From contig CAZJMK010000011.1 in NCBI GenBank assembly GCA_964547135.1, positions 2,881-66,880 of the forward strand: 64,000 nucleotides of DNA. Reading direction: 5' to 3'. Source of the stretch: an uncultured Phycisphaeraceae bacterium (lineage in GTDB: Bacteria; Planctomycetota; Phycisphaerae; Phycisphaerales; Phycisphaeraceae). This document shows, piece after piece, positions 5,976-64,000 of the stretch. The notes beneath the pieces are model-generated. The model saw only the letters and a program-made list of their open reading frames with translations. It was not told the DNA's origin and did no database searches. How positions within the stretch are numbered: the stretch's first letter is position 1; every line of letters begins with the position of its first letter. A program made the translations under genes and the position numbers.

Positions 5976-7120
5976 CGTGGTTGACCCAATAGTCGGGTGA
6001 ATTCTTTCAGATACAGGTCGGCCACGGCTTCGTTACTGAACGCCAGACTGCGTGCCGCCCCCTGTTTGGATATACGCTCATACAGCTCTTGGTCGTTTAA
6101 AAGTCGATTGAGCTGTTCAGCCAAGGCGAGGGCTGGATCATCGCGGCGATGATCAAACACCAGGCCGGTCTGCCCTTCATCGACAAAATCCGCAAAGCAA
6201 TCAAGCTTGGAAACCACCACCGGCAAACCCGTGGCCATCGCTTCCAATGGAGCCACGCCAAAGGTTTCCCCCTTTTCCGCCAGCGATGGATAACAATACA
6301 CATGGGCCTGGTGCATCGCCAGACGCAGGGCGTCACGATCATAAATCGGCGGAACAAATTCCACCGGCAGACCTTGTGCCAATTCCCGAAGTTCGTTCAG
6401 ATAAGCATCGCCCCCGCCACCTCGCTCGGTTTCATGCGGACCGATGATGCGCAAACGCAGCGATGGCATACGCTGATGCAGATGTGCAAAGGCCTGGATT
6501 AAAACATGGAGTCCCTTTTCAGGATGAACGCGCCCGGTGAACAGTATCGTGGCGGATTCCTTGGCCGGGTGCTGTCGGGGTTGTGACGGAGGGAAAAAAG
6601 CGTGAACGTTGATCGGGTTGGGCACCACCACGGTACGTTCACATAACGCCGGTACCAACGCGCACACCGCCTGACGCGTGGCCTGTGACACCGCCAACAA
6701 CCCATCCAGTTTGCCGTACCAGCGGAAGTGCCGCTTGGGCATGCGCTGCACGTTATAAACCACGCACCGTGCTTTTTGACGCAACCGATCCGCCAGAATC
6801 GGCAGCCAGAAACTGTTGATCATGACGACATCGCAATCGGGTATCCGCCGAGCCACGCGATGGGCGTAGAACAGGTCCTTGATAATATTGATGTAGATCG
6901 AGTCGGTCGCATTCCCTGCCTTGACATAGTCGTAATGGACCCCTTCATAAACACCGGGGGCAGGCAATACCGGGTCGTGCCGACAAATCACCGTCACCTG
7001 ATGATCGCCCAGTGCCATCTGTTTGGCGATATCCACCCAGATACGTTCGACCGCCCCGGCGGGTGCCGGTGGAATCGACAAAAAGGGACCCAAGGCAATC
7101 ACAATTCGCATGACCGGCAT
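5972..7120 (-). CDS. family-4 (GT-B) glycosyltransferase
   Basis: C-terminal GT4 motif EKGETFGVAPLEAMATGLPVVVS. 4-bp overlap with the downstream acetyltransferase. Confidence 0.8.
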   Translation of the reverse strand: MPVMRIVIALGPFLSIPPAPAGAVERIWVDIAKQMALGDHQVTVICRHDPVLPAPGVYEGVHYDYVKAGNATDSIYINIIKDLFYAHRVARRIPDCDVVMINSFWLPILADRLRQKARCVVYNVQRMPKRHFRWYGKLDGLLAVSQATRQAVCALVPALCERTVVVPNPINVHAFFPPSQPRQHPAKESATILFTGRVHPEKGLHVLIQAFAHLHQRMPSLRLRIIGPHETERGGGGDAYLNELRELAQGLPVEFVPPIYDRDALRLAMHQAHVYCYPSLAEKGETFGVAPLEAMATGLPVVVSKLDCFADFVDEGQTGLVFDHRRDDPALALAEQLNRLLNDQELYERISKQGAARSLAFSNEAVADLYLKEFTRLLGQPR

Positions 7121-7260: not shown

Positions 7261-8610
7261 GTGGCGGAAAAAACTTTGGGTCAACAAGGTCTTTCGTTGC
7301 CGCAGGTGGTGGCGGGGGGTTATTGTGTCGGCTGTGGTGCCTGTGCTGCCGGACATCCTCAGGTGCAGGTGCGTCTGAATGCTCACGGCAAATACGAACC
7401 CACTCTTTTGGATGACGGACAAAATGCCGCGGAATGTCCGATGTCTTCCGCCGGGATGAACGAAGACGCCCTGGCGTTGCAATGGTTTCCGATGGCCCCC
7501 CATGCTGACCCCAAAGCCGGTCGCTTTGAAGCCTGTTACGCCAGCTGGGTGAGCGATGAATCGGCAAGAATGGCCAGCAGTTCCGGCGGCATGGCCACCT
7601 GGTTGGCGGTGCAAATGTTGCGGCAGGGTTTGATCGATGGCGTGGCGCATGTTCACCCACGCATACCCACCGATAATGACGACCGATTGTTTGCATATCA
7701 CCTTTCTCGCAGTGAAAGCGATATCCGTGCCGGGGCCAAATCCCGTTACTATGCGGTGGAAATGTCCGGGGTTTTACGGCAAATCCGCGAACAACCCGGA
7801 CGATATGCGGTGATCGGTGTGCCCTGCTTCATCAAAGCGGTTCGACTGTTGCAGCAGTCCGAGCCGATTTTCCGGGAGCGGATTGCACATACGATCAGTA
7901 TTCTTTGTGGTCAAATGAAAAGCACCTGGTACGGTCAGGCCCTGGCTTGGCAGACAGGCGTGGCACCCGGAAATATTCGCGCTTTGGATTTCCGTTACAA
8001 GATGAGTGGGAAGCCGGCCTCGTCCTATCACCTGGCCGTGCAACCTCGCGACGGCAGCGATCCGCATATCGTGCCGGTGGGCGAACTGTTCGGCGGCGAT
8101 TGGGGCATGGGCTGTCTGAAATACGAAGCCTGCGATTATTGCGATGACATACTCGGCGAAACCGCGGATGTGGCCTTGGGCGATGCCTGGTTGCCCAAAT
8201 ATGTTCATGATTCACGCGGAACCAATGTCCTTATCGTACGTCAACCTGCGCTGCACGATTTGCTGCGTCGCGGAGCCAACGACCATGCCATCGTATTGGA
8301 ACCGCTGGCGGCGGAGGCTGCCGTGCAGTCGCAGATTGCCGCATTCCGCCATCGGCGAACCGGGCTGGCGTATCGGCTGCACTTGAAGCAGCGTCAAGGC
8401 ATCGCTTACCCGGTCAAACGGGTGACACCCTCAGCCGGGCTGTCGTTGAAAATGCGCTTGAACTTCCGCATTCGGATGCTGATCACGCGTTCGAGTTTTT
8501 ACTGGTATGAAAGAGCGCTGCGGGCTGGGGATATCCGGGTGTACCTGCGCGGGATGAAAAAGTGGGCGTTGATTTATTCGATCTGGAAACGACTGCGTGC
8601 CCGGCGTTAA
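7261..8610 (+). CDS. coenzyme F420 hydrogenase/dehydrogenase beta-subunit-like protein (polysaccharide-locus type)
   Basis: N-terminal CVGCGAC Fe-S motif and SSSGGMATW FrhB-family motif. This family is usually paired with pyruvyl transferases in EPS loci. Confidence 0.7.
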   Translation: MAEKTLGQQGLSLPQVVAGGYCVGCGACAAGHPQVQVRLNAHGKYEPTLLDDGQNAAECPMSSAGMNEDALALQWFPMAPHADPKAGRFEACYASWVSDESARMASSSGGMATWLAVQMLRQGLIDGVAHVHPRIPTDNDDRLFAYHLSRSESDIRAGAKSRYYAVEMSGVLRQIREQPGRYAVIGVPCFIKAVRLLQQSEPIFRERIAHTISILCGQMKSTWYGQALAWQTGVAPGNIRALDFRYKMSGKPASSYHLAVQPRDGSDPHIVPVGELFGGDWGMGCLKYEACDYCDDILGETADVALGDAWLPKYVHDSRGTNVLIVRQPALHDLLRRGANDHAIVLEPLAAEAAVQSQIAAFRHRRTGLAYRLHLKQRQGIAYPVKRVTPSAGLSLKMRLNFRIRMLITRSSFYWYERALRAGDIRVYLRGMKKWALIYSIWKRLRARR

Positions 8611-8652
8611 AAAGCAGCCCGTTCACCCACCATCGAGGCCCGTGAGTATTGC

Positions 8653-9783
8653 ATGAAAGTCGGCATCCTGAATCTTTATTATTCGTTCAACTACGGCGCC
8701 GTGCTGCAGGCTTATGCCTTGCAGGAAGTGTTGCGCAGTTTGGGAACGGAGCCGGAGTACCTGAATTTTCGCCCCCAGGGCGAGGGTATCATCCAGCCCA
8801 AACCCTGGTATCTGCGCATGGATTTATTGCGCAACCGCCCCGTGATGAAACTGATGCATCTGCGCCAGATATCGCAGATGCGTCGGAATTTTGAACTGTT
8901 TCGCAGCAGATACCTGCAGCAATCCCCCGCCTTCGCCGGTGCGGATGATTTTCGCCGGTACGCCTCGCAATACGATGCCCTTGTGGTCGGCAGTGATCAG
9001 GTCTGGAACTGCTCCGAAAGACTGGTGCGGGAATTTTTTCTGGATTTTTCCCTGGACCGTCAGAAACGCATCAGCTATGCCGCCTGTTTCGGTCAACCTC
9101 TGCAACTGCCTCATGTGCCGGGAATCGTCGGACCCTTGCTGCGACGTTTTGATCATCTGAGTGTGCGTAACACAGCTTCGCAGGAACTGGTCCGGCAATA
9201 TGCCGATCGTGAATCGTTGATCACCGCCGACCCAACCCTGTTGCATGATTTTACCGAGTTGCTGATCGGCGAGAATCCGTTGGGCCGGCCTTACGTGATG
9301 GTGTACGCCCTGGACAAGGAGTTGGCTGGTCCGGGCAGCGTGTTGGCTCAAATCGTCGGGAAAAAGTTGGGCTTGCCCGTGGTCAGCGTGGTATCGCGGA
9401 TGCAGGTGGTGCAGGGGTGGACCTTCCTTGGTGCTGACCAACAATTATGGACCGTCAATGTGCCCCAGTGGTTGGCGCTGTTGCGTCATGCGGCCTTTGT
9501 CTGTACCGACTCGTTTCATGGCATGATGTTTGCCGCCAAGTTCAAACGCCCTCTGATTGCCTATCACGATAATGCACATCGTGCCGTGCGACTCATCGAC
9601 GCGGCGCGACGCTACGGATTGGAGCCTCGGCTGCTTCCGGCCAAGACTGAAGCGCAGGTGCCCGGCTTGGTATCTTCCGACATCGATTACCAGCCGATTC
9701 ACGACCAAATGCTCGCCCATGCACGCGAGTCACGCGCTTTCTTACAATCAGCTCTGCATACAACTACAACTGCCCCGCTCTGA
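8653..9783 (+). CDS. polysaccharide pyruvyl transferase (WcaK/CsaB family)
   Basis: N-terminal MKVGILNLYYSFNYGAVLQAYAL pattern and overall PS_pyruv_trans length. Immediately downstream of the FrhB-like gene. Confidence 0.75.
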   Translation: MKVGILNLYYSFNYGAVLQAYALQEVLRSLGTEPEYLNFRPQGEGIIQPKPWYLRMDLLRNRPVMKLMHLRQISQMRRNFELFRSRYLQQSPAFAGADDFRRYASQYDALVVGSDQVWNCSERLVREFFLDFSLDRQKRISYAACFGQPLQLPHVPGIVGPLLRRFDHLSVRNTASQELVRQYADRESLITADPTLLHDFTELLIGENPLGRPYVMVYALDKELAGPGSVLAQIVGKKLGLPVVSVVSRMQVVQGWTFLGADQQLWTVNVPQWLALLRHAAFVCTDSFHGMMFAAKFKRPLIAYHDNAHRAVRLIDAARRYGLEPRLLPAKTEAQVPGLVSSDIDYQPIHDQMLAHARESRAFLQSALHTTTTAPL

Positions 9784-19843: not shown

Positions 19844-20557
19844 ATGCATCGCAAAGCCCTGACCCTGCTCACAGGACTGACTTTGGCATGGTTGCCCTGC
19901 ACTTTCACTTTCGCTGAAGAAGCTCCGGTCAAAGAAGCCCCCACGCTTAAGCAAAAGGAATCCGTCGAGAGCAAAGCGCCCAAAGCCGAAAAGACCCCCG
20001 CAGGCGTCCCTGTTTACTACGCAACGATTCTCAAAGAGCTTGGCCTGGAAGGCGAACAACGCGAAAAGTTCATCGCCAAGGTGCGTGAGCGCCAACAGGC
20101 GGTCAACGCCTGGAAAAAGGAAAATGACGCCAAGGTCAAGGAACTGAATCAGCAGGCCACGGATGCCAAGACCAAGGGCGATGTCGCCGGCGAATCGCAG
20201 GCGAAAAAAGAAGTCAAAACCCTCAACGATGAACTGGCGAAACTCGAAGAGGAACACACCGCACAGATTCATTCCGTGCTCACCGATGAACAACGCGCCA
20301 AGTTGACAGCTTACAACGCCTACACCGGCTTACTACGCAGCTTCGCCCGCGCTTCGATCAGCGACGATCAGAAAGCACAGATCAAACAGATCGTGTACGC
20401 CCACGCCAAGGAGTTTGGGCAATTGGCTGAAAACGATCGCAAAGGCCGACAGACGCTGCGCGAAAAAATCATCGATGAGGTGCGCCAAAACGTGCTCACC
20501 CCCGAGCAACAGGCAGCCTTGCCCTCCGCGAAGAAGCCTGCGGAAGGCAAAGAGTGA
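19844..20557 (+). CDS. secreted Spy/CpxP-like periplasmic protein (LTxxQ-repeat family)
   Basis: Signal peptide, coiled-coil, Lys/Glu-rich, repeated LTDEQRAKL / LTPEQQAAL motifs. Confidence 0.45.
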   Translation: MHRKALTLLTGLTLAWLPCTFTFAEEAPVKEAPTLKQKESVESKAPKAEKTPAGVPVYYATILKELGLEGEQREKFIAKVRERQQAVNAWKKENDAKVKELNQQATDAKTKGDVAGESQAKKEVKTLNDELAKLEEEHTAQIHSVLTDEQRAKLTAYNAYTGLLRSFARASISDDQKAQIKQIVYAHAKEFGQLAENDRKGRQTLREKIIDEVRQNVLTPEQQAALPSAKKPAEGKE

Positions 20558-20961
20558 TTGGGTGAATTGACGATGCGGTGATTTTTCAGGACGGTTTCGA
20601 ATCATACATGACGCCGAGGGCTTTAGCCCCGGATTGTTTGCATGATGAAAAGACAAACATCCGGCCCTAAAGGGCACGGCGTCAAAATCAAGCGCGAAAA
20701 AAACAGAAATCACCCAATCACCCAAGGGTTCAATGAAGAATACCCGGACCCTCGTCATTCGCTGCGCTCATGCCTCGTTCCCGGCTTGGATTCAACACCA
20801 CAACAAATCAAAATCGACTCGCCATTTTTTGTCGAATCATCAAACCCTAACCGTTTTCCAATCTTTTACCGATGCCCGGCATTGGTTGATGGACTATGGT
20901 AAAGCGTGCGGCGAGTTGGGGTGTTTTTTTGTCATCCGGGCTGATGGGAAGCGAGGGTTCC

Positions 20962-21843
20962 ATGATGAGCCGAGCGTCGGGTGTTGCTGTTGTTTCACGT
21001 CAGAATCGCTCTGCGTTCACACTGATTGAGCTGTTGGTGGTGATTTCCATCATTGCGCTATTGATTGGCATTTTGCTGCCGGTGCTGGGCAGGGCACGTG
21101 AGTCAGCTCGCACTACGCAGTGTCTGAGCAACCTCAAACAGTGGGGCATCGCGCTCAACAGCTACATCATTGACAACAATCAGACATTGCCGGGGGAGGG
21201 AGCATCTTTTGGACCTTCATCCCCAGTTCGTACATGGAATCCTGGTCGACCAAATAACGCTTGGAACAATATGTCTGAAAGTGCTTGGTACAATGCGTTA
21301 CCACGTTATGTAGATGCAGACCGATATGGGGATATTTACAACGGAACCGATGCTGTGGGCTTTTCGGGGGGCTATCGATCGAATTGGATTATGTATTGTC
21401 CTTCGAGAGTTGTACAACAAAAAAATTCCAATAGCGCACAGAATGGATGCCACTATGCTATGAACGCAACATTTAATGGATCCGGTACATCTGGCACTAC
21501 ATTGATTGAATTTACATCAATTCCGACGCTCAGTGAGTTCCGCCATTACCTACGCCTGAACCGCGTCTCTCGTCCGGAGGCCACTGTTTTTCTTGCGGAA
21601 GGTGGCAATGTACCCAATGTGAGTCCTCGCACCAATAGCATGTTGCGGGATCGTCATGGAGATGGTGCCAATGGCGGACAAGGCGGCTCCGGATACAACC
21701 TGCTGTTCATGGATGGTAACGCCCGGTTTATTCGCAACGTGGATGCCCCCGCACCAGCATCTGGAAATATTCTGATTGGACCCAACGATCCGCCTTTCCA
21801 ATACACCACGCCCCAACTGATCATCTGGGGACCGTTCTTCTAA
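20962..21843 (+). CDS. DUF1559 prepilin-type N-terminal cleavage/methylation protein (planctomycete H-X9-DG family)
   Basis: [23 protein letters not shown] class-III signal at the N-terminus. C-terminal [11 protein letters not shown] motif. The central segment (~21230-21540) is conspicuously AT-rich. Confidence 0.85.
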
Positions 21844-21854
21844 AAACATTTAGC

Positions 21855-21885
21855 CCCCGGTCAATGACCGGGGGTTTGTTTTTTG
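21855..21885 (+). terminator. rho-independent terminator after the DUF1559 gene
   Basis: gcccccggtca atgaccgggggc stem followed by a T-run (tttgtttttt). Confidence 0.6.
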
Positions 21886-22171
21886 GGTCGTGGGTATAGG
21901 AGGCTGTGTGCTGATGACGCCGAGGGCTTTAGCCCCGGATGGTTTGCACATTGTCCATTATCCAATGATATTCATGGTGGGTCCGCTCGCAGACGCGCTT
22001 GACCCACCCTGCACAGCTTGGTTGCCGAGTGCCACTGGCAGCTTGTCTGCCAGTGCATTCCCACTGCAGCGCGTCATGGCAATACCATCAACGATCACAG
22101 ACGCGATCCATCGCGGCGCTCACCAAAGCGCCGACGCAAAGCGTCCGAGCCAAACAAATCCGAAATTTACG

Positions 22172-57227: not shown

Positions 57228-59429
57228 TCACCGCCCCGGTTGTAAAAATCCTTCCAGCGTCGAGGTGGCATCCTTCAAATCAATCCGATGCACCCCGGGT
57301 ACGCCCGTGTTTTCATGGACGATGTACTTGCGCGGTTTGGCCAACCCTTCCGCCAGGGCGTCCAAATACGCTCGACCCTTGAAATATTGCGGGGCCTGTT
57401 TGTACGCAGCCGCCAGTGCCGGGAAAGCCTGCGCCTTGCTGCGCTCAGCAATGCCCGTCTCCCACCGCTGCGCCCGTGCTTCGTAAATGATCTGACTGGC
57501 CTGCCCCGGTGCCGCCACCAGCAGTGCTTCGATCTGTGCTTCCTGTGCCGCCACCGCTGCGCCCAGTTCGGTCAATCGCGCACCCACTTCACCAGCCGAT
57601 CGCATTTTCAGCGACTCAACCTGTTCCCGCAATTTTTCCAACGCCAATACCGCATCACGAATCTGCAACGCCATTTCTTCCGACCCCGCCACCTGCGCCA
57701 GGGTTTGAATCCGTTCCTGCTTGGCTTTCCAGATGGTGGTTTCCTTTTCCTGAATCGCGCCGACCTGTTCATGGAACGCCGCCGCCACCTGTACGCCTTC
57801 GCCGCCGTCAGCACTTTCGCCGCCGCGGGGCGGGTGAATGCCCACCACGCCCACATAGACCACCTGCACGCCCATGTGCAGGGCATCCGCCTGCTTTTGA
57901 ATCGCCTGCCGCATGAACTGGCCCGCTTCCAATCGGCCTCGACCGATCAGCGTGTCCAAATCCTTGGTGACAAAATATTCGGTGAGTGTACGATCCGCCA
58001 GGGCGGACATCAGTTGTTCAGGTTTCTGTGCCGAGGTGACATATTTCGTCAGGTCCGTGATCTGATAATGCACCAACACTTCCGCCGCCACCAGGGACAC
58101 AGCCGGGGTTGACCCTGCCGCTGCCGAGGGTGCGGTGTTGCCCGCATCGCTGCGTCCCTCTTCCCGGACCGTCGGTGCGGTGATGAGGTATTCCTCTTTG
58201 CCGTCCACGTGTACGTTCGTCCACAAAATGGCCGTATCTTCCTTGAGTTTCTGATACGACCCCACCCGTGCCACCTGAATCCGCCCCACGTCATACCGCT
58301 GCACCCCGCCGATCGGCCAGGGCCATTTCAAATGCAGCCCCGGTCCAACCGGTTCCCCACGCATCGCCCCGAACGTCGTGATCACCGCCTGCTGCTGCGG
58401 TTCCACAATCACGATCGACCCAATCAACAGCAAAATCCCCAAGCCACTGGCCAACAGCGGCGTGATCGACCGCGACATCAACATGTAAAACCAGCTTCGG
58501 CTGATTTCAAAACCAAACTGATAGTTGATCGTCTCGTTGACGATTTTCGCCAACCCCTCCGGCTTGGTCAGCCAACCCAGCAACCGCGAATCAAACGCCG
58601 GCCTTGGTATTTCACCGGGTTTACGTGGCCGATATGCCCCCGACAAAAACGAAAGCACGATTTCCAGCCCCAACAGCGTCATCAGCCCCGGCACCACCAG
58701 CCCGACCCATGCCATGATGCTTTCGTTGCCAAACAGGGCAAACCCCGCCCCCGCCAAAATCAGCAGCGCGACCAGCACCAACCCCATCAAATAACCCGCC
58801 CCGCTGCGCAACAACTGCCACTCTTTCTGCACCGTCATCCCCGCGGCATAGCGCCCCACAATGAACGCCACAAACGCAATCCCCGCCATGAACGCCATCA
58901 ATAAACCAGGGTTGCCATCCGCTCTATCGCCCAACGCTCTGGTCACAAACATCGGCGAACCGAGCGTGCGATACCCCAGCACCAGCAGCGTGATACCCAC
59001 CGCAAGCAGATATACCGCCAAGGCCAGACTGACCCCGTTCAAGCCCCACTGATACAAATTGTCCAGCCGTTTGCGGGCGATGCGCAGTTCATCCGCCTGG
59101 GTTTCAAACAGCGCAGCCGTGGGCGCGTTGCTGCGCGATAGCTGCTCCACCTCCAGCGTTTCAGCGCGTTCAATCTGATGCTGTTTGTAAATCAGCCAGA
59201 GAATCGCCCACAGGGGCAGTCCGCCCAGAAAGTGCCAGGTGGCGGCGTGCAAGGCCGGCGACTGCGCCCACAAGCCCGTCACCGCCATCACGGCTGACAA
59301 CAGCAATTGCACGCACAAACCCAGCAATGCCGCGTTGCCTGCCCGACGATACGACTGTTGATCCTGCACCATGCCTGGTTCCGTATGAAGGGGCCAATCT
59401 CGCAATTCACGCCTCGACAGGTTCTGCAA
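57228..59429 (-). CDS. SPFH/HflK-like protein fused to a ~300-aa polytopic N-terminal membrane domain
   Basis: Six to eight predicted TM helices. SPFH core follows (ITTFGAMRGEPVGPGLHLKWPWPIGGVQ). HflK-like C-terminal coiled-coil. Confidence 0.65.
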   Translation of the reverse strand: MQNLSRRELRDWPLHTEPGMVQDQQSYRRAGNAALLGLCVQLLLSAVMAVTGLWAQSPALHAATWHFLGGLPLWAILWLIYKQHQIERAETLEVEQLSRSNAPTAALFETQADELRIARKRLDNLYQWGLNGVSLALAVYLLAVGITLLVLGYRTLGSPMFVTRALGDRADGNPGLLMAFMAGIAFVAFIVGRYAAGMTVQKEWQLLRSGAGYLMGLVLVALLILAGAGFALFGNESIMAWVGLVVPGLMTLLGLEIVLSFLSGAYRPRKPGEIPRPAFDSRLLGWLTKPEGLAKIVNETINYQFGFEISRSWFYMLMSRSITPLLASGLGILLLIGSIVIVEPQQQAVITTFGAMRGEPVGPGLHLKWPWPIGGVQRYDVGRIQVARVGSYQKLKEDTAILWTNVHVDGKEEYLITAPTVREEGRSDAGNTAPSAAAGSTPAVSLVAAEVLVHYQITDLTKYVTSAQKPEQLMSALADRTLTEYFVTKDLDTLIGRGRLEAGQFMRQAIQKQADALHMGVQVVYVGVVGIHPPRGGESADGGEGVQVAAAFHEQVGAIQEKETTIWKAKQERIQTLAQVAGSEEMALQIRDAVLALEKLREQVESLKMRSAGEVGARLTELGAAVAAQEAQIEALLVAAPGQASQIIYEARAQRWETGIAERSKAQAFPALAAAYKQAPQYFKGRAYLDALAEGLAKPRKYIVHENTGVPGVHRIDLKDATSTLEGFLQPGR

Positions 59430-60594: not shown

Positions 60595-60809
60595 AACGTA
60601 GTGGTCAAGTGGCCGAGTGCAGAACCCAAGCCAAGGACGAGGAACGTAGTGACGAGGACTTGGGTATGCCCGGTGGTTAAACGGTGAGTCGGTGAGTCGG
60701 TTAATCGGGAAGAAAAAGACAAATAAATACCGACCGAGTAACCGAGTAACCAAACCATACCCACGCGCATCGGCTGGTGATATGATCGTTCTTTTCCAAG
60801 GAACTCATC

Positions 60810-62405
60810 ATGACCATGCCCGTGATCCGCATTGATCGCAGCAAGCTCGAAATTCCGCCCGGGGTCACGGAAATCGTCCCCATTCTCGACTTCGGCTCAC
60901 AATACGTCCAACTCATCGCCCGCCGGGTGCGCGAAGCCGGGGTGCTGGGCGTGCTGGTTCCGCCCAACATCGCCGTCGAAGACCTCAAAGCCTTGAACCC
61001 CAAGGGCATCATTCTTTCCGGCGGCCCGGCCAGTGTCTATGAAAAAAACGCCCCCACCTGCGACAAACGCCTGTTCGAACTGGGCGTGCCCATCCTCGGC
61101 ATCTGCTACGGCATGCAAATCGGCTGCGAACTATTGGGTGCCAAGGTGCAAGGCAACCCGTCACGTGAGTTTGGCCGTACCGCTTTGCAGGTCACCGCCA
61201 ATGACCGCTTGTTTCCCGGTGTACCGGCCCACACCACCGTTTGGATGAGCCATGGGGATCAGGTCACCGAGCTTAATGACGATTTTGTTTCCCTGGCTAC
61301 CACGCCCACCTGCCCGATCGCCGCGGTCAAGCATCACAAGCACCCTTTCTTTGGCGTGCAGTTTCACCCCGAAGTCACCCACACGCCCCACGGCATCGAC
61401 ATTCTGCGCAACTTCCTTTTCGGCATCTGTGCCTGCACCGGCACCTGGCGTATGACCGACTTCCTGCAATCACAAGTACAAGTCATTCGCCAGCGCGTCG
61501 GCAATAACCGTGTGATATGCGGCCTGTCGGGCGGGGTCGATTCCTCCGTCGTCGCTGCCCTGCTTGCCAGGGCCATCGGCAAACAACTCACCTGCATTTT
61601 CGTGGACAACGGCCTGTTGCGCAAAGGTGAACGCGACCTGGTCGAATCAACCTTCCGTGGCCACTTCGACATCGACCTGCGCGTCATTGATGCAAGCCAG
61701 CAGTTTTTGAGTGATTTGCAGGGCATCACCGACCCGCAGGACAAACGCAAACGCATCGGCCACCGGTTCATTGAAGTGTTCAAACAGGCGGCTGCCAACC
61801 TACCCGGCGATGTGAAATTTTTGGCGCAAGGCACGCTTTACCCCGACGTGATCGAATCGGGGCAGGGTTACGCGGGCACGGCTGCCAACATCAAATTGCA
61901 TCACAACGTCGGCGGACTGCCCGAACAACTGGGCTTTGAACTCATCGAACCATTGCGTTCCCTCTTCAAAGATGAAGTACGCATGTTGGGGCAGGTGCTT
62001 GGGCTGCCCGAACAGATGGTCTGGCGACACCCGTTCCCCGGCCCGGGTTTGGCGGTGCGTTGTCTGGGCGAAGTCAGCAAGCCGCAACTAGACCTGTTGC
62101 GTGAAGCCGACGAAATATTGCTGGAGGAAATTGTCGCCAACCATTTGTATCGCAAAACCAGTCAGGTGTTCGCGGTGCTATTGCCGGTGCGGGCGGTGGG
62201 CGTGATGGGTGATGGGCGAACCTATGACCAGGTGATTGCCATCCGTGCAGTGGAAACGCAGGATTTCATGACCGCCGACTGGGCACGCATTCCCTTTGAT
62301 GTGCTGGCGGTGATCAGCAACCGCATCATCAATGAAGTGCGCGGCATCAACCGGGTGGTGTACGACATTTCGAGCAAACCCCCGGCCACGATCGAGTGGG
62401 AATAA
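60810..62405 (+). CDS. guaA: GMP synthase (glutamine-hydrolysing)
   Basis: GATase-1 (GICYGMQ), N-type ATP-PPase ([10 protein letters not shown]) and C-terminal dimerisation domain. Confidence 0.95.
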
Positions 62406-62421
62406 GGATCACGTTGTGTGT

Positions 62422-63519
62422 ATGATAAAGATCAAACAACAACGGATAACTAAAATGCTAACTCAATTACACATTCAGAATTTTCGCGGCATTAATAGCT
62501 TATCCTTGAACGGTTTTGCTCGGTTTAATATTTTTGTCGGTCGAAATGGTTGCGGGAAAACGACTTTGCTTGAGGCCGTTTCTGTGGTCGCCAACCAGTT
62601 AACTCCCGGTTGGCTAAATCAACTCGGAGTATGGAGAGAACTACCGCCTGCCAGTCTAAACAATTACGATTCAATACTTTCCGTCTTTCCTCAATTGGAT
62701 TCTTCTATTCCGATTGTTTTAAAGTACAAAATTAAAGATATATCCGATGACTTACATTTGACAATAAATTCAAAGATAGAGAATATCAGTATCGATACCT
62801 CCGAGCATACAACTGATTTATCGTCTCGCGATCTATCGTTACGCATGAGTGGAGTATCTTACGATCTTAAAAATGCACACAAATCGTTGGCTCATTCAGA
62901 ACTGTTGTTCGTCCCCACTGGATACCAAGAAAAAACAAGCGGCGACCAAAAGAAAAGGCATCTTGGCTGTTTTTACATCCATGCACGAAGAGCGACCAGT
63001 TTGGGTGAAACCGCACGTGCTTTGACTGAGTTATATGCAAAAAAGCAGCAAGCATTATTTATTGAAGCCATGAAACGCGTTGATAGCCGAATACAAAATC
63101 TTGTACCAGGCACGCGTCGAAATACCGCAACCGTTCTTGCCGATATTGGGCTTGCAACCCTTATTCCAATCAATCTGCTTGGGGATGGTTTCTGCCGAAT
63201 ATGTCTCATGGCTACAGGGGCTGTCAATGTGGGTTCAAAGCTTTTAATTGTTGACGAAATCGATTCCGGCTTGCACCATACCGTGATGGCTGATTTCTGG
63301 CGATCATTGGATAACTTGTCGCGATCCTTTGGAACACAAGTCTTTTGCTCAACCCATAACGATGAAATGCTGCGCAGCACGATTGATGCGTTTCAAGGCA
63401 ATCCCGATGATGTAAGAATCATCAGAATAGATCGTAATGTTGACGAAATGGTGACATGCCAATTTTATACGTATGATCTATATCAGAAAGCAGACAATGT
63501 TGGACTTGACGTACGATGA
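62422..63519 (+). CDS. SMC/RecF-like ABC ATPase (AAA_21/AAA_15 type), candidate defence ATPase
   Basis: LHIQNFRGI...FNIFVGRNGCGKTTLLEA N-terminus. Walker B/D-loop LLIVDEIDSGLHH. Lies in an AT-rich island. Confidence 0.75.
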   Translation: MIKIKQQRITKMLTQLHIQNFRGINSLSLNGFARFNIFVGRNGCGKTTLLEAVSVVANQLTPGWLNQLGVWRELPPASLNNYDSILSVFPQLDSSIPIVLKYKIKDISDDLHLTINSKIENISIDTSEHTTDLSSRDLSLRMSGVSYDLKNAHKSLAHSELLFVPTGYQEKTSGDQKKRHLGCFYIHARRATSLGETARALTELYAKKQQALFIEAMKRVDSRIQNLVPGTRRNTATVLADIGLATLIPINLLGDGFCRICLMATGAVNVGSKLLIVDEIDSGLHHTVMADFWRSLDNLSRSFGTQVFCSTHNDEMLRSTIDAFQGNPDDVRIIRIDRNVDEMVTCQFYTYDLYQKADNVGLDVR

Positions 63520-64000
63520 GCATCACCTATAAAGGCAGCAAACAAAAAATTGAACGGCCCGTCGCCATTGCAGTCGAGGGGCTTGAGTATTATTACCTTT
63601 TGTTGTCACAGATTAAGGACAATCCTCAACTACAAAGCGTACAGCTGTGGAATTTTGGAGGTTATCCTCAATTGGGCGAATGGCTTAAGCTTTTCCAATC
63701 TCTTGATCAAACGATTGTAAAGGTACGCGCCATAGGAATTATACGAGATGCTGAAAGCAATGCACAGGCCGCATCGGATCATGTCAAAAATTGCTTGAAG
63801 TCCGCAGGTTATGACGCTCCGAATAATCCAGGCGTATTTTCGACGGGATTTCCCGCTACGGGCTACCTCATTATGCCTATCGGAAGACAGTCAGGATGCT
63901 TGGAAGATGCCTGCCTGGAAGCCACGACGGATACCAAGCTAAAACAGGTCCTTCCGGAATCAGCGTGGGTAAAGGTCCAGTCCGCCACAGTGGAAGTAGA
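63516..64000 (+). CDS. Toprim-like small partner protein (RloB/DUF4276/AriB-like); partial, continues past window end
   Basis: ATGA overlap with the ATPase. N-terminal VAIAVEGLEYYYL resembles the acidic EG..E..Y motif of RloB/DUF4276-type Toprim-like proteins. Confidence 0.5.
   Translation, partial: MSITYKGSKQKIERPVAIAVEGLEYYYLLLSQIKDNPQLQSVQLWNFGGYPQLGEWLKLFQSLDQTIVKVRAIGIIRDAESNAQAASDHVKNCLKSAGYDAPNNPGVFSTGFPATGYLIMPIGRQSGCLEDACLEATTDTKLKQVLPESAWVKVQSATVEV

Follow-up and report, generated by a model that had tools for sequence, protein, structure and literature searches.

The region directly downstream of guaA in the 64,000-nt window (the whole stretch of DNA that was analysed) is most likely a compact, horizontally acquired two-gene cassette inserted at that position. 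Its first gene (gene A) encodes an ABC ATPase, and its second (gene B) encodes a partner of the Pfam family DUF3226 with a predicted Toprim fold. By analogy with PARIS and AbiL, we read the cassette as a split OLD-type ATPase-plus-Toprim anti-phage module that would act by a PARIS/AbiL-like mechanism, a reading to which we assign a probability of roughly 60%, and of which the window copy is possibly disrupted. The features are as follows, with the evidence in parentheses.

60810–62405, + strand: guaA, GMP synthase (777.6 bits with NCBIfam NF000848, glutamine-hydrolysing GMP synthase; cut-off 400)
62406–62454, + strand: AT-rich spacer of 49 nt from the guaA stop to the ATPase start (sequence)
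62455–63519, + strand: gene A, a 354-aa head-only ABC ATPase of the SMC/Rad50 class, AAA_15/AAA_21 (Pfam, PADLOC, alignment, AF2)
63516–63519, + strand: ATGA overlap of the gene A stop and gene B start, suggesting translational coupling (sequence)
63516–63935, + strand: gene B residues 1–140, the predicted Toprim-fold core of the DUF3226 protein (Pfam, family profile, invariant columns)
63936–64000, + strand: gene B tail, residues 141–161 of the open frame, candidate breakpoint (hmmsearch, BLASTP, Logan ends, GC)

Base composition and borders of the island

The GC content is 0.575 over positions 1–62405 and 0.431 over 62406–63945, the drop starting at the guaA stop codon. Because the 1540-nt windows in the rest of the 64-kb window average 0.575 ± 0.018 (minimum 0.508), the island stands at z = −8.2, below every one of them. 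GC3 likewise falls, from 0.72 in guaA to 0.39 (ATPase gene) and 0.455 (gene B). By its composition, the island DNA is foreign and was acquired horizontally, as an earlier note on this DNA had suggested from an abrupt fall in GC at 62405. That note had put the background at ~60% GC, which we measure at about 57.5%, and had described the sequence as AT-rich up to the window end; the description holds through 63945 but not for the final 55 nt (63946–64000), where the GC content is 0.564, a value reached by 1.2% of the island's own 55-nt windows.

The left flank, guaA, is typical of the genome, and its stop codon is the left edge of the island; with either start codon, the guaA sequence has no exact match on record. 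An assembly chimera at the guaA–island junction is ruled out by two independent Logan assemblies that are 100% identical to the window over 61437–63975 and 62087–63976. We saw no mobility gene, integrase included, and no att site for the cassette, the right border of the window copy lying beyond 64000. A repeat scan found no flanking repeats around the island above shuffled expectation, and neither tRNA genes nor Rfam families were found in the 64-kb window. In the spacer, the + strand shows neither a sigma-70-like promoter nor a terminator (nothing above shuffled expectation), so the cassette could be transcribed by read-through from guaA or from a non-consensus promoter. The cassette stands alone beside guaA, amid housekeeping genes and outside any defence island.

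The ATPase and its DUF3226 partner

Gene A matches the Pfam families AAA_15 (2.7e-19) and AAA_21 (1.7e-18). It carries a Walker A motif (G29-RNGCG-K35-T36), a signature-like motif (L-G243-D-G245-F), a Walker B/D-loop (D267-E268-I-D270), and an H-loop (T300-H301), and these motif columns are invariant in an alignment of 70 sequences (A4). The AF2 model of the protein (pLDDT 93.8) has a Rad50/SMC/PtuA/AriA-like fold. The ATPase motifs quoted in the earlier note, LHIQNFRGI, GRNGCGKTTLLEA, and LLIVDEIDSGLHH, were all located within the ORF ending at 63519. Of the SMC/RecF-like ABC ATPase of ~365 aa described there, the assignment to the SMC/Rad50 class stands, but the length is most likely 354 aa, with a start at 62455 that is supported by homologues, by the database protein P0066, and by how the gene is called in L001 and L002; an alternative in-frame ATG upstream, at 62422, would give the 365-aa version. 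JGI metagenomes scanned with the ATPase yielded no close relative, and an exact look-up of its sequence returned two short Logan contigs only, ending at 63975 and 63976.

If gene A were instead a housekeeping repair protein of the RecF, SbcC, or RecN type, the low GC of the region would be local compositional noise. The scores of gene A against the NCBIfam equivalogs are 44.5 bits for RecF (cut-off 172), 27.4 for RecN (407.85), and 13.6 for SbcC (478.5), all far under the curated cut-offs, and the matches are confined to the P-loop region at residues about 1–50. Gene A has no coiled coil, its relatives are sporadic and sit in a different genomic context in each host, and the z of −8.2 is lower than that of any other 1540-nt window. 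We consider this explanation, which the earlier note had named as a refutation of its own reading, extremely improbable and reject it.

Gene B overlaps gene A by 4 bp (ATGA, 63516–63519), as had been claimed, and the N-terminal sequence singled out in the earlier note, VAIAVEGLEYYY, is found in the ORF starting at 63516. The resemblance to RloB, DUF4276, or AriB (DUF4435) proposed from that sequence did not survive the comparison with Pfam, which places gene B in DUF3226 (PF11536; 1.9e-11, 44.6 bits versus a gathering cut-off of 27); its relatives score 38.6–104.9 bits against the same model. For gene B and seven full-length relatives, the RloB Pfam model gave no match (E ≤ 1 or E ≤ 5); DUF4435 and AriB models in Pfam and PADLOC gave none either, and AbiLii models matched neither gene B (E ≤ 1) nor any of the seven relatives (E ≤ 0.01). 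Gene B also had no match in PHROGs.

Across 66 sequences, E21-G22 (VEG), D78, and E130 (G127-C-L-E130) of gene B are invariant and E80 (D78-A-E80, IRDAE) is nearly so; all of these residues are present in the window copy. The conserved Glu after strand 1 and the acidic DxD-type motif after strand 3 fit a Toprim/OLD-like nuclease and are putative counterparts of the OLD metal ligands. In a model of the full-length homologue P0024 (53% identical, pLDDT 92.2), we see a Toprim alpha/beta fold that is closest to OLD-family nucleases, with Foldseek matches that are not significant. A PDB sequence search with the DUF3226 profile found nothing. On the strength of this model and the conserved residues, the gene B family is predicted to be a Toprim fold with a putative OLD-nuclease-like acidic metal site, in line with the Toprim-like partner that the earlier note had envisaged.

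Related loci, the gene B tail, and the proposed role

The ATPase gene lies directly upstream of the DUF3226 gene, in the same order, in 20/20 independent related loci examined. They span Planctomycetota, Verrucomicrobiota, Chloroflexota, Bipolaricaulota, Alphaproteobacteria, and Thiotrichales (counted as at least six phyla), and the DUF3226 family as a whole has >5,000 cluster representatives at 50% identity. The ATGA junction is common to 10 of the 13 cassettes compared, and the GC content of the cassette is under that of both flanks at every locus measured (12/12). Neighbouring genes differ from locus to locus. The Planctomycetota loci place the cassette amid housekeeping genes rather than in a defence island, and one relative adjoins NERD-kinase and MAD7 defence-type genes. 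No integrase was found beside the intact cassettes of relatives. The pair is intact in L021 (ATPase gene at 8001–9077, DUF3226 gene at 9074–9712 of that locus) and in L004.

A broader interpretation of these data would make ATPase-plus-DUF3226 pairs a large and mechanistically distinct group within split OLD-type immunity, having a trigger and a substrate of their own. They would spread as bare 1.7-kb two-gene units that lack an integrase, perhaps by recombining, homologously or illegitimately, into housekeeping operons at their 3' ends, and the clade seen in Planctomycetota would be a new subtype missed by current detectors. We put this forward as a speculation and consider it unlikely.

The window copy of gene B departs from its relatives near the window end. 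Family similarity ends at residue about 140 of about 213: the family profile (213 positions) covers residues 6–140 only, with 161.6 bits, and the tail scores −1.8 bits in hmmsearch and shows no detectable similarity to the ~70-residue C-terminal helical part of DUF3226 (domain consensus C..YL.CV...N.NWRAKVKVHALIAA...LWD). The BLASTP alignment with the closest intact partner reaches residue 142 and breaks off just ahead of the conserved Cys-containing helix. Since similarity is lost after codon about 140, where other assemblies break, gene B may be truncated or disrupted in this copy and the system inactive. Positions 63936–64000 are accordingly listed as a candidate breakpoint, caused by an insertion, repeat, or rearrangement, or as a candidate strongly diverged or deleted segment.

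Taken further, the window cassette would be a decaying remnant, its gene B interrupted near position 63940 through an insertion, repeat, or rearrangement, and thus a non-functional relic regardless of what the family does elsewhere. We judge the chances of this to be evenly balanced. Beyond the loss of similarity, it is favoured by the termination of both Logan contigs at 63975/63976, by the GC of the last 55 nt, which is back at the genome level and so rare within the island, and by the protein database, where the ATPase is listed (from an NCBI contig) but a near-identical, full-length product of gene B is not. However, only 55–65 nt lie past the putative breakpoint, the gene B frame is open up to the window end, and, the NCBI contig with the identical ATPase being 66,880 nt long, the window edge at 64000 need not coincide with a contig end. 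A search for a 31-mer of the tail (63956–63986) as a possible repeat gave no exact hit among genome, metagenome, or viral contigs. Weak AW..VKV resemblance to the downstream helix would instead fit an in-frame deletion of about 16–19 codons.

For the family, the best working model is the mechanism of PARIS: sequestration, release, and then cleavage of tRNA. In PARIS, AriA sequesters the Toprim RNase AriB (PMC13064643). By analogy, we infer an anti-phage role for the ATPase+DUF3226 pair, together with its complex formation, trigger, and substrate. The ATPase and the Toprim nuclease would form a complex in which the ATPase keeps the nuclease inactive and senses infection. A phage-derived trigger, or altered ATP binding or hydrolysis, would free or activate the nuclease, which would then cleave a nucleic acid, either tRNA, as PARIS does, or DNA, as OLD and Gabija do, leading to abortive infection.

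The same two genes could instead be mainly a selfish toxin–antitoxin or addiction cassette, with the Toprim nuclease as toxin and the ATPase as antitoxin, that is maintained and disseminated through post-segregational killing, without a role dedicated to phage defence. The minimal two-gene unit with its conserved ATGA overlap would suit such an element, as would a GC content that is low versus every host and a scattering among unrelated housekeeping neighbours without defence genes. There is precedent too: NetFlax, with neutralisation tests, found AAA-type antitoxins that neutralise the TOPRIM_OLD toxins paired with them (PMC10440598), and PARIS itself acts as a type II toxin–antitoxin system (PMC13064643). 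Because PARIS is both, this explanation is compatible with a defence role and does not exclude it. Against it, a 354-aa ATPase with fully conserved catalytic motifs exceeds the needs of a simple antitoxin, one relative adjoins the NERD-kinase and MAD7 genes, and the cassettes of PADLOC candidate PDC-M38 (discussed below) were, like the other candidates of that series, chosen for being embedded in known defence systems (10.1101/2024.01.29.577857). We therefore consider a purely selfish role unlikely and keep the split OLD-type anti-phage module as the preferred reading.

Should the cassette work as a defence module, the ATPase-plus-Toprim family (OLD/PARIS/AbiL) would gain a clade from Planctomycetota. 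To our knowledge, very little experimental phage biology exists for Planctomycetota. Predicted fold, motif, and strict gene pairing also tie two orphans to this family, namely Pfam DUF3226 and PH0156, a structural-genomics protein. The window copy is probably unsuited for testing because its effector gene appears incomplete, and the locus may do nothing if gene B is truncated; the practical yield is a short list of intact relatives that are fit for testing (L021, L004). For genome annotation, the result is a small horizontally acquired cassette adjoining guaA.

Comparison with known systems

The earlier note had recognized a pair architecture of the PARIS, AbiL, RloAB, or OLD type. The parallel in architecture to PARIS and AbiL holds, whereas the partner belongs to a different family (DUF3226). 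In the OLD family (P2 Old, class 2 BpOLD, Gabija GajA, and the retron Eco8/Ec67 effectors), the ATPase and Toprim domains are fused in OLD and GajA, unlike the separate, coupled genes found here, and the helicase (GajB/UvrD) or retron partner of class 2 OLD/Gabija and the retrons was not seen within the window. AbiL of Lactococcus (AbiLi/AbiLii) and RloAB-type systems likewise place a small Toprim/OLD-like nuclease behind an ABC ATPase, and the best-scoring PADLOC model for gene A is AbiLi PDLC02336 (9.3e-46, residues 1–342 on model positions 1–329 of 340). A second AbiLi model, however, gives gene A only 53.5 bits, and gene B is a DUF3226 protein rather than RloB or AbiLii.

AbiL has been grouped with PARIS as ATPase+TOPRIM systems (PMC13064643). 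PARIS (AriA/AriB) likewise splits the ATPase from the Toprim effector. The scores of gene A are 72–78 bits against AriA HMMs versus 143–155 bits against the PDC-M38A and AbiLi models; gene B has no DUF4435/AriB match, and the partner is about 213 aa here versus about 280–300 aa in PARIS. The link between gene B and AriB is indirect and runs through the literature on PH0156 of Pyrococcus horikoshii: the top HHpred match of AriB (DUF4435) is PH0156/2P62, the founding DUF3226 structure (PMC11381338). PH0156 is itself distant, at 16% identity, and was missed by the PDB sequence search. Strictly speaking, we assign the pair to neither AbiL nor PARIS, the partner being neither AbiLii/RloB nor AriB.

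The closest catalogued counterpart is PDC-M38, 1 of 145 predicted PADLOC candidates (Payne et al. 2024, 10.1101/2024.01.29.577857). We found no mention of DUF3226, PF11536, or PDC-M38 in the text of any paper searched, PDC-M38 appearing only in a supplementary table. The two-gene architecture is the same, with genes A and B adjacent on the same strand and overlapping by ATGA. The ATPase matches PDC-M38A over its full length (PDLC04608, 3.3e-42, residues 2–354 on model positions 5–366 of 367; second model PDLC04611, 7e-37), both partners are Pfam DUF3226 proteins, and PDC-M38B is the only PADLOC model that gene B and its clade match. Two differences set the window cassette apart. It is solitary by guaA rather than embedded in another defence system, and its Planctomycetota clade is divergent: the incomplete gene B of the window matches PDC-M38B weakly (E 2.3e-3, 15.6 bits) and full-length clade relatives do so at 8e-8 to 3e-4, except for P0041, which has no match, whereas more typical DUF3226 proteins reach 4e-13. 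The earlier note had supposed that the pair matches no named system cleanly and may be a divergent or unnamed family. Divergent it is, but a name exists; judged from these profile matches, the pair corresponds to PDC-M38 as a divergent member of an already catalogued kind.

Composition of the island and its junction with guaA

The cassette, an ABC ATPase gene (gene A) followed by a DUF3226 partner gene (gene B), lies downstream of guaA in the following setting:

57228-59429, minus strand: 733-aa protein with an HflK/SPFH-like domain (91.8 bits, below cut-off), upstream of guaA
59566-60594, plus strand: 342-aa multi-pass membrane protein, no NCBIfam match, upstream of guaA
60810-62405, plus strand: guaA (NCBIfam GMP synthase model, 777.6 bits, cut-off 400)
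62455-63519, plus strand: gene A
63516 to the window end, plus strand: gene B

The setting upstream of guaA is housekeeping, and no defence genes adjoin the cassette. Directly after the guaA stop, the GC content drops, as an earlier note on this DNA had claimed, from 0.575 over 1-62405 to 0.431 over 62406-63945; the background is thus about 57.5% GC and not the ~60% given there. Relative to all other 1540-nt windows (mean GC 0.575 ± 0.018, none below 0.508), the island has z = -8.2, and third-codon-position GC is 0.72 in guaA, 0.39 in gene A and 0.455 in gene B. The low GC, said to reach the window end, extends to 63945; the last 55 nt (63946-64000) are genome-like again at 0.564. The junction with guaA is real: two independent Logan assemblies span it with 100% identity to the window. 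The composition is a sign of horizontal transfer of the cassette.

Two other features of the window were observed. The intergenic stretch 60661-60763, upstream of guaA, forms a long imperfect hairpin with repeated units (GGTGAGTC GGTGAGTC GGTTAATC ... CCGACCGAGTAACCGAGTAACC; RNA minimum free energy -34.8 kcal/mol, z = -2.7 versus shuffles) that matches no Rfam family. The second-lowest GC region, ~20000-21600 (1540-nt minimum 0.508 from 20011; 0.517 over 20001-22000), may be another small acquired segment and overlaps two open reading frames:

19844-20557, plus strand: open reading frame
20896-21843, plus strand: open reading frame

The ATPase and its DUF3226 partner

The pair combines a competent-looking ABC ATPase with a Toprim-fold partner that has conserved acidic residues. 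All motifs quoted in the earlier note were found in the window, as was the ATGA overlap of the two genes (63516-63519). The ATPase, put there at ~365 aa, is most likely a 354-aa protein starting at 62455, since this start agrees with a database ATPase (P0066) and with every homologue (N-terminus ML..L.I..FRGI); an ATG further upstream, at 62422, gives the 365-aa form. Pfam places the 354-aa product in AAA_15 (2.7e-19) and AAA_21 (1.7e-18). In a 70-sequence alignment, the following residues are invariant or nearly so: G29, N31, G34, K35 and T36 of Walker A; L-G243-D244-G245-F, a signature-like motif; D267, E268, I269 and D270, then G272-L273-H274, of Walker B and the D-loop; and T300-H301 of the H-loop. 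DEIDSGLHH, taken earlier for a Walker B variant, is thus the motif that the family conserves, and gene A seems to encode a catalytically competent protein. The best defence models, AbiLi (PDLC02336, 9.3e-46) and PDC-M38A (PDLC04608, 3.3e-42), both match over the full length; the AriA, GajA, PtuA and Old models fall well short of these scores. A housekeeping identity (RecF, SbcC or RecN), which had been named as a refuting result, was rejected: the RecF, RecN, Rad50 and SbcC models match the P-loop region only, far below curated cut-offs.

The open frame of gene B matches Pfam DUF3226 (1.9e-11, 44.6 bits, cut-off 27) and no other Pfam family. It has no match to the RloB, DUF4276, DUF4435 or Toprim_N models, so the proposed RloB / DUF4276 / AriB-type (DUF4435) assignment did not hold; its sole PADLOC match, PDC-M38B, is weak (2.3e-3). 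Homologues of the gene B product stand alone as proteins of 198-233 aa and are all DUF3226; several are labelled Planctomycetota, and the closest is 53% identical. An exhaustive DUF3226 profile search returned 5,361, 2,980 and 974 representatives of 50%-identity clusters at E <= 1e-3, 1e-10 and 1e-30, respectively; by these counts the family is large. Across 66 sequences (window numbering), E21-G22, D78, G127 and E130 are invariant and E80 nearly so, with E21-G22 falling in the VAIAVEG of the earlier note and D78 and E80 in IRDAE.

Structural likeness figures for the gene A product (AF2 model) and the gene B fold (model of the full-length homologue P0024)
Gene A, Rad50/SMC heads: 18-19
Gene A, PtuA: 17.6
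Gene A, retron Eco7 ATPase: 17.3
Gene A, AriA: 17.1
Gene A, GajA: 14.8
Gene A, RecF: 14.8
Gene A, TsOLD: 14.2
Gene B, PH0156 (2P62), founding structure of DUF3226: 11.4
Gene B, Burkholderia OLD C-terminal Toprim region: 9.9 (147 residues aligned)
Gene B, Thermus OLD: 8.2
Gene B, GajA: 7.8
Gene B, T7 primase: 7.5
Gene B, retron Ec67: 7.1

For the partner fold, Foldseek found nothing significant in the PDB, and a sequence search of the PDB for DUF3226 was empty. The structural likenesses, taken with the E...D-x-E acidic pattern, support a predicted OLD-type Toprim fold. The structural guess of a Toprim-like partner was thus right, and the lack of such a fold, another refuting result named, is not what the homologue model indicates.

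Conservation of the pair and the state of gene B

We collected related loci from three independent neighbourhoods found through protein look-ups, 11 species-representative genomes (Planctomycetaceae, Blastopirellula, Verrucomicrobiia, Chloroflexota, Bipolaricaulota, Alphaproteobacteria and Thiotrichales), L021, which is the closest relative, and distant members. Every locus examined shows one arrangement: the DUF3226 gene is immediately preceded, on its own strand, by the gene of an AAA_15/AAA_21 ATPase of 350-367 aa. Identity is 43-46% for the ATPase and 45-51% for the partner at close loci, and ~25% and ~32% at distant ones; judged from these values, the two diverge in parallel. The genes are strictly co-inherited and translationally coupled, with the ATGA overlap retained in 10 of 13 cassettes, other phyla among them. 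Neighbours differ from host to host and are mostly housekeeping genes, cassette GC is lower than both flanks at 12 of 12 loci, and no integrase adjoins the cassette at the loci examined.

Three relatives merit separate description. In an alphaproteobacterial MAG (L018, 4909-6603 of a 3.1-Mb contig), the low-GC block is exactly the two cassette genes (cassette GC 0.488, or ~0.42-0.47 in a second figure; flanks ~0.70; no adjacent integrase), and within the DUF3226 gene GC climbs in the 3' half (0.655 over 6200-6599). In a distant member (L022, 936-9614 of ENA ERZ23495796 scaffold_1520), the pair is followed by three same-strand genes, whose products are an RNA ligase (PF09414/PF21189), a protein of 1316 aa with NERD and protein-kinase parts and a protein with a MAD7 domain. 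This setting is defence-island-like, and the adjoining ligase would be notable if the DUF3226 nuclease targets tRNA. In a Bipolaricaulota MAG (L017, 5616-6300), the ATPase upstream of the DUF3226 gene can be recognized over its first ~53 residues only, and the DUF3226 match begins at query residue 42; the cassette here may be degraded.

The window cassette itself probably carries an incomplete effector gene. Gene B matches the 213-position family profile over residues 6-140 only (161.6 bits), its remaining 21 residues score -1.8 bits, and its BLASTP alignment with the 212-aa partner of L021, the closest intact one, stops at residue 142, immediately short of the conserved C..YL.CV helix. The ends of the two Logan contigs, 63975 and 63976, coincide with this loss of similarity, and the GC of the final 55 nt is reached by just 1.2% of 55-nt windows inside the island. 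The exact gene A protein, from an NCBI contig, is in a protein database that holds no near-identical gene B product. Together, these observations suggest a breakpoint at about 63940-63946 from a repeat, insertion or rearrangement. However, just ~60 nt lie past this point, the frame remains open, the tail was found nowhere as a repeat, and the NCBI contig has a length of 66,880 nt, which leaves room for it to run on past the window edge. A faint AW..VKV resemblance in the tail would instead fit an in-frame deletion, and the evidence for the breakpoint is not decisive.

Proposed function and relation to known systems

An ABC ATPase paired with a Toprim/OLD nuclease is a well-known class (OLD, Gabija, PARIS, AbiL, RloAB, HEC-01/04), and the earlier note recognized this two-gene architecture correctly. 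Its suggestion of a possibly unnamed family gave way to a catalogued one, PDC-M38 (AAA_15/21 ATPase plus DUF3226). PDC-M38 stands in the supplementary table of Payne et al. among the "phage defence candidates", which were drawn from cassettes embedded in known defence systems and of which, according to the text, 145 are untested (10.1101/2024.01.29.577857). Across the literature searched, no mention of DUF3226, PF11536 or PDC-M38 was found in paper text.

In PARIS, AriA sequesters the Toprim RNase AriB until the phage trigger Ocr frees it to cleave lysine tRNA; AbiLii is a predicted OLD-like protein, and AbiL has been grouped with PARIS (PMC13064643). On the model of PARIS, AbiL and OLD, the ATPase would bind the nuclease and keep it inactive, would detect an infection cue, and would then free or activate the nuclease, whose cutting of tRNA or DNA would abort the infection. 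The main functional rival is a plain toxin-antitoxin role, which is compatible with defence; in NetFlax, AAA-type proteins neutralise TOPRIM_OLD toxins (PMC10440598). In a published table, the top HHpred hit of lactococcal AriB (DUF4435) is PH0156/2P62 (PMC11381338), which links DUF3226 to the AriB lineage.

The overall significance of the locus is modest; its value is that it connects Toprim effectors with DUF3226 and PH0156 and identifies intact relatives of the cassette. As a divergent member from a Planctomycetota clade, the locus falls within the candidate system PDC-M38 and, more widely, the OLD/PARIS/AbiL kind.
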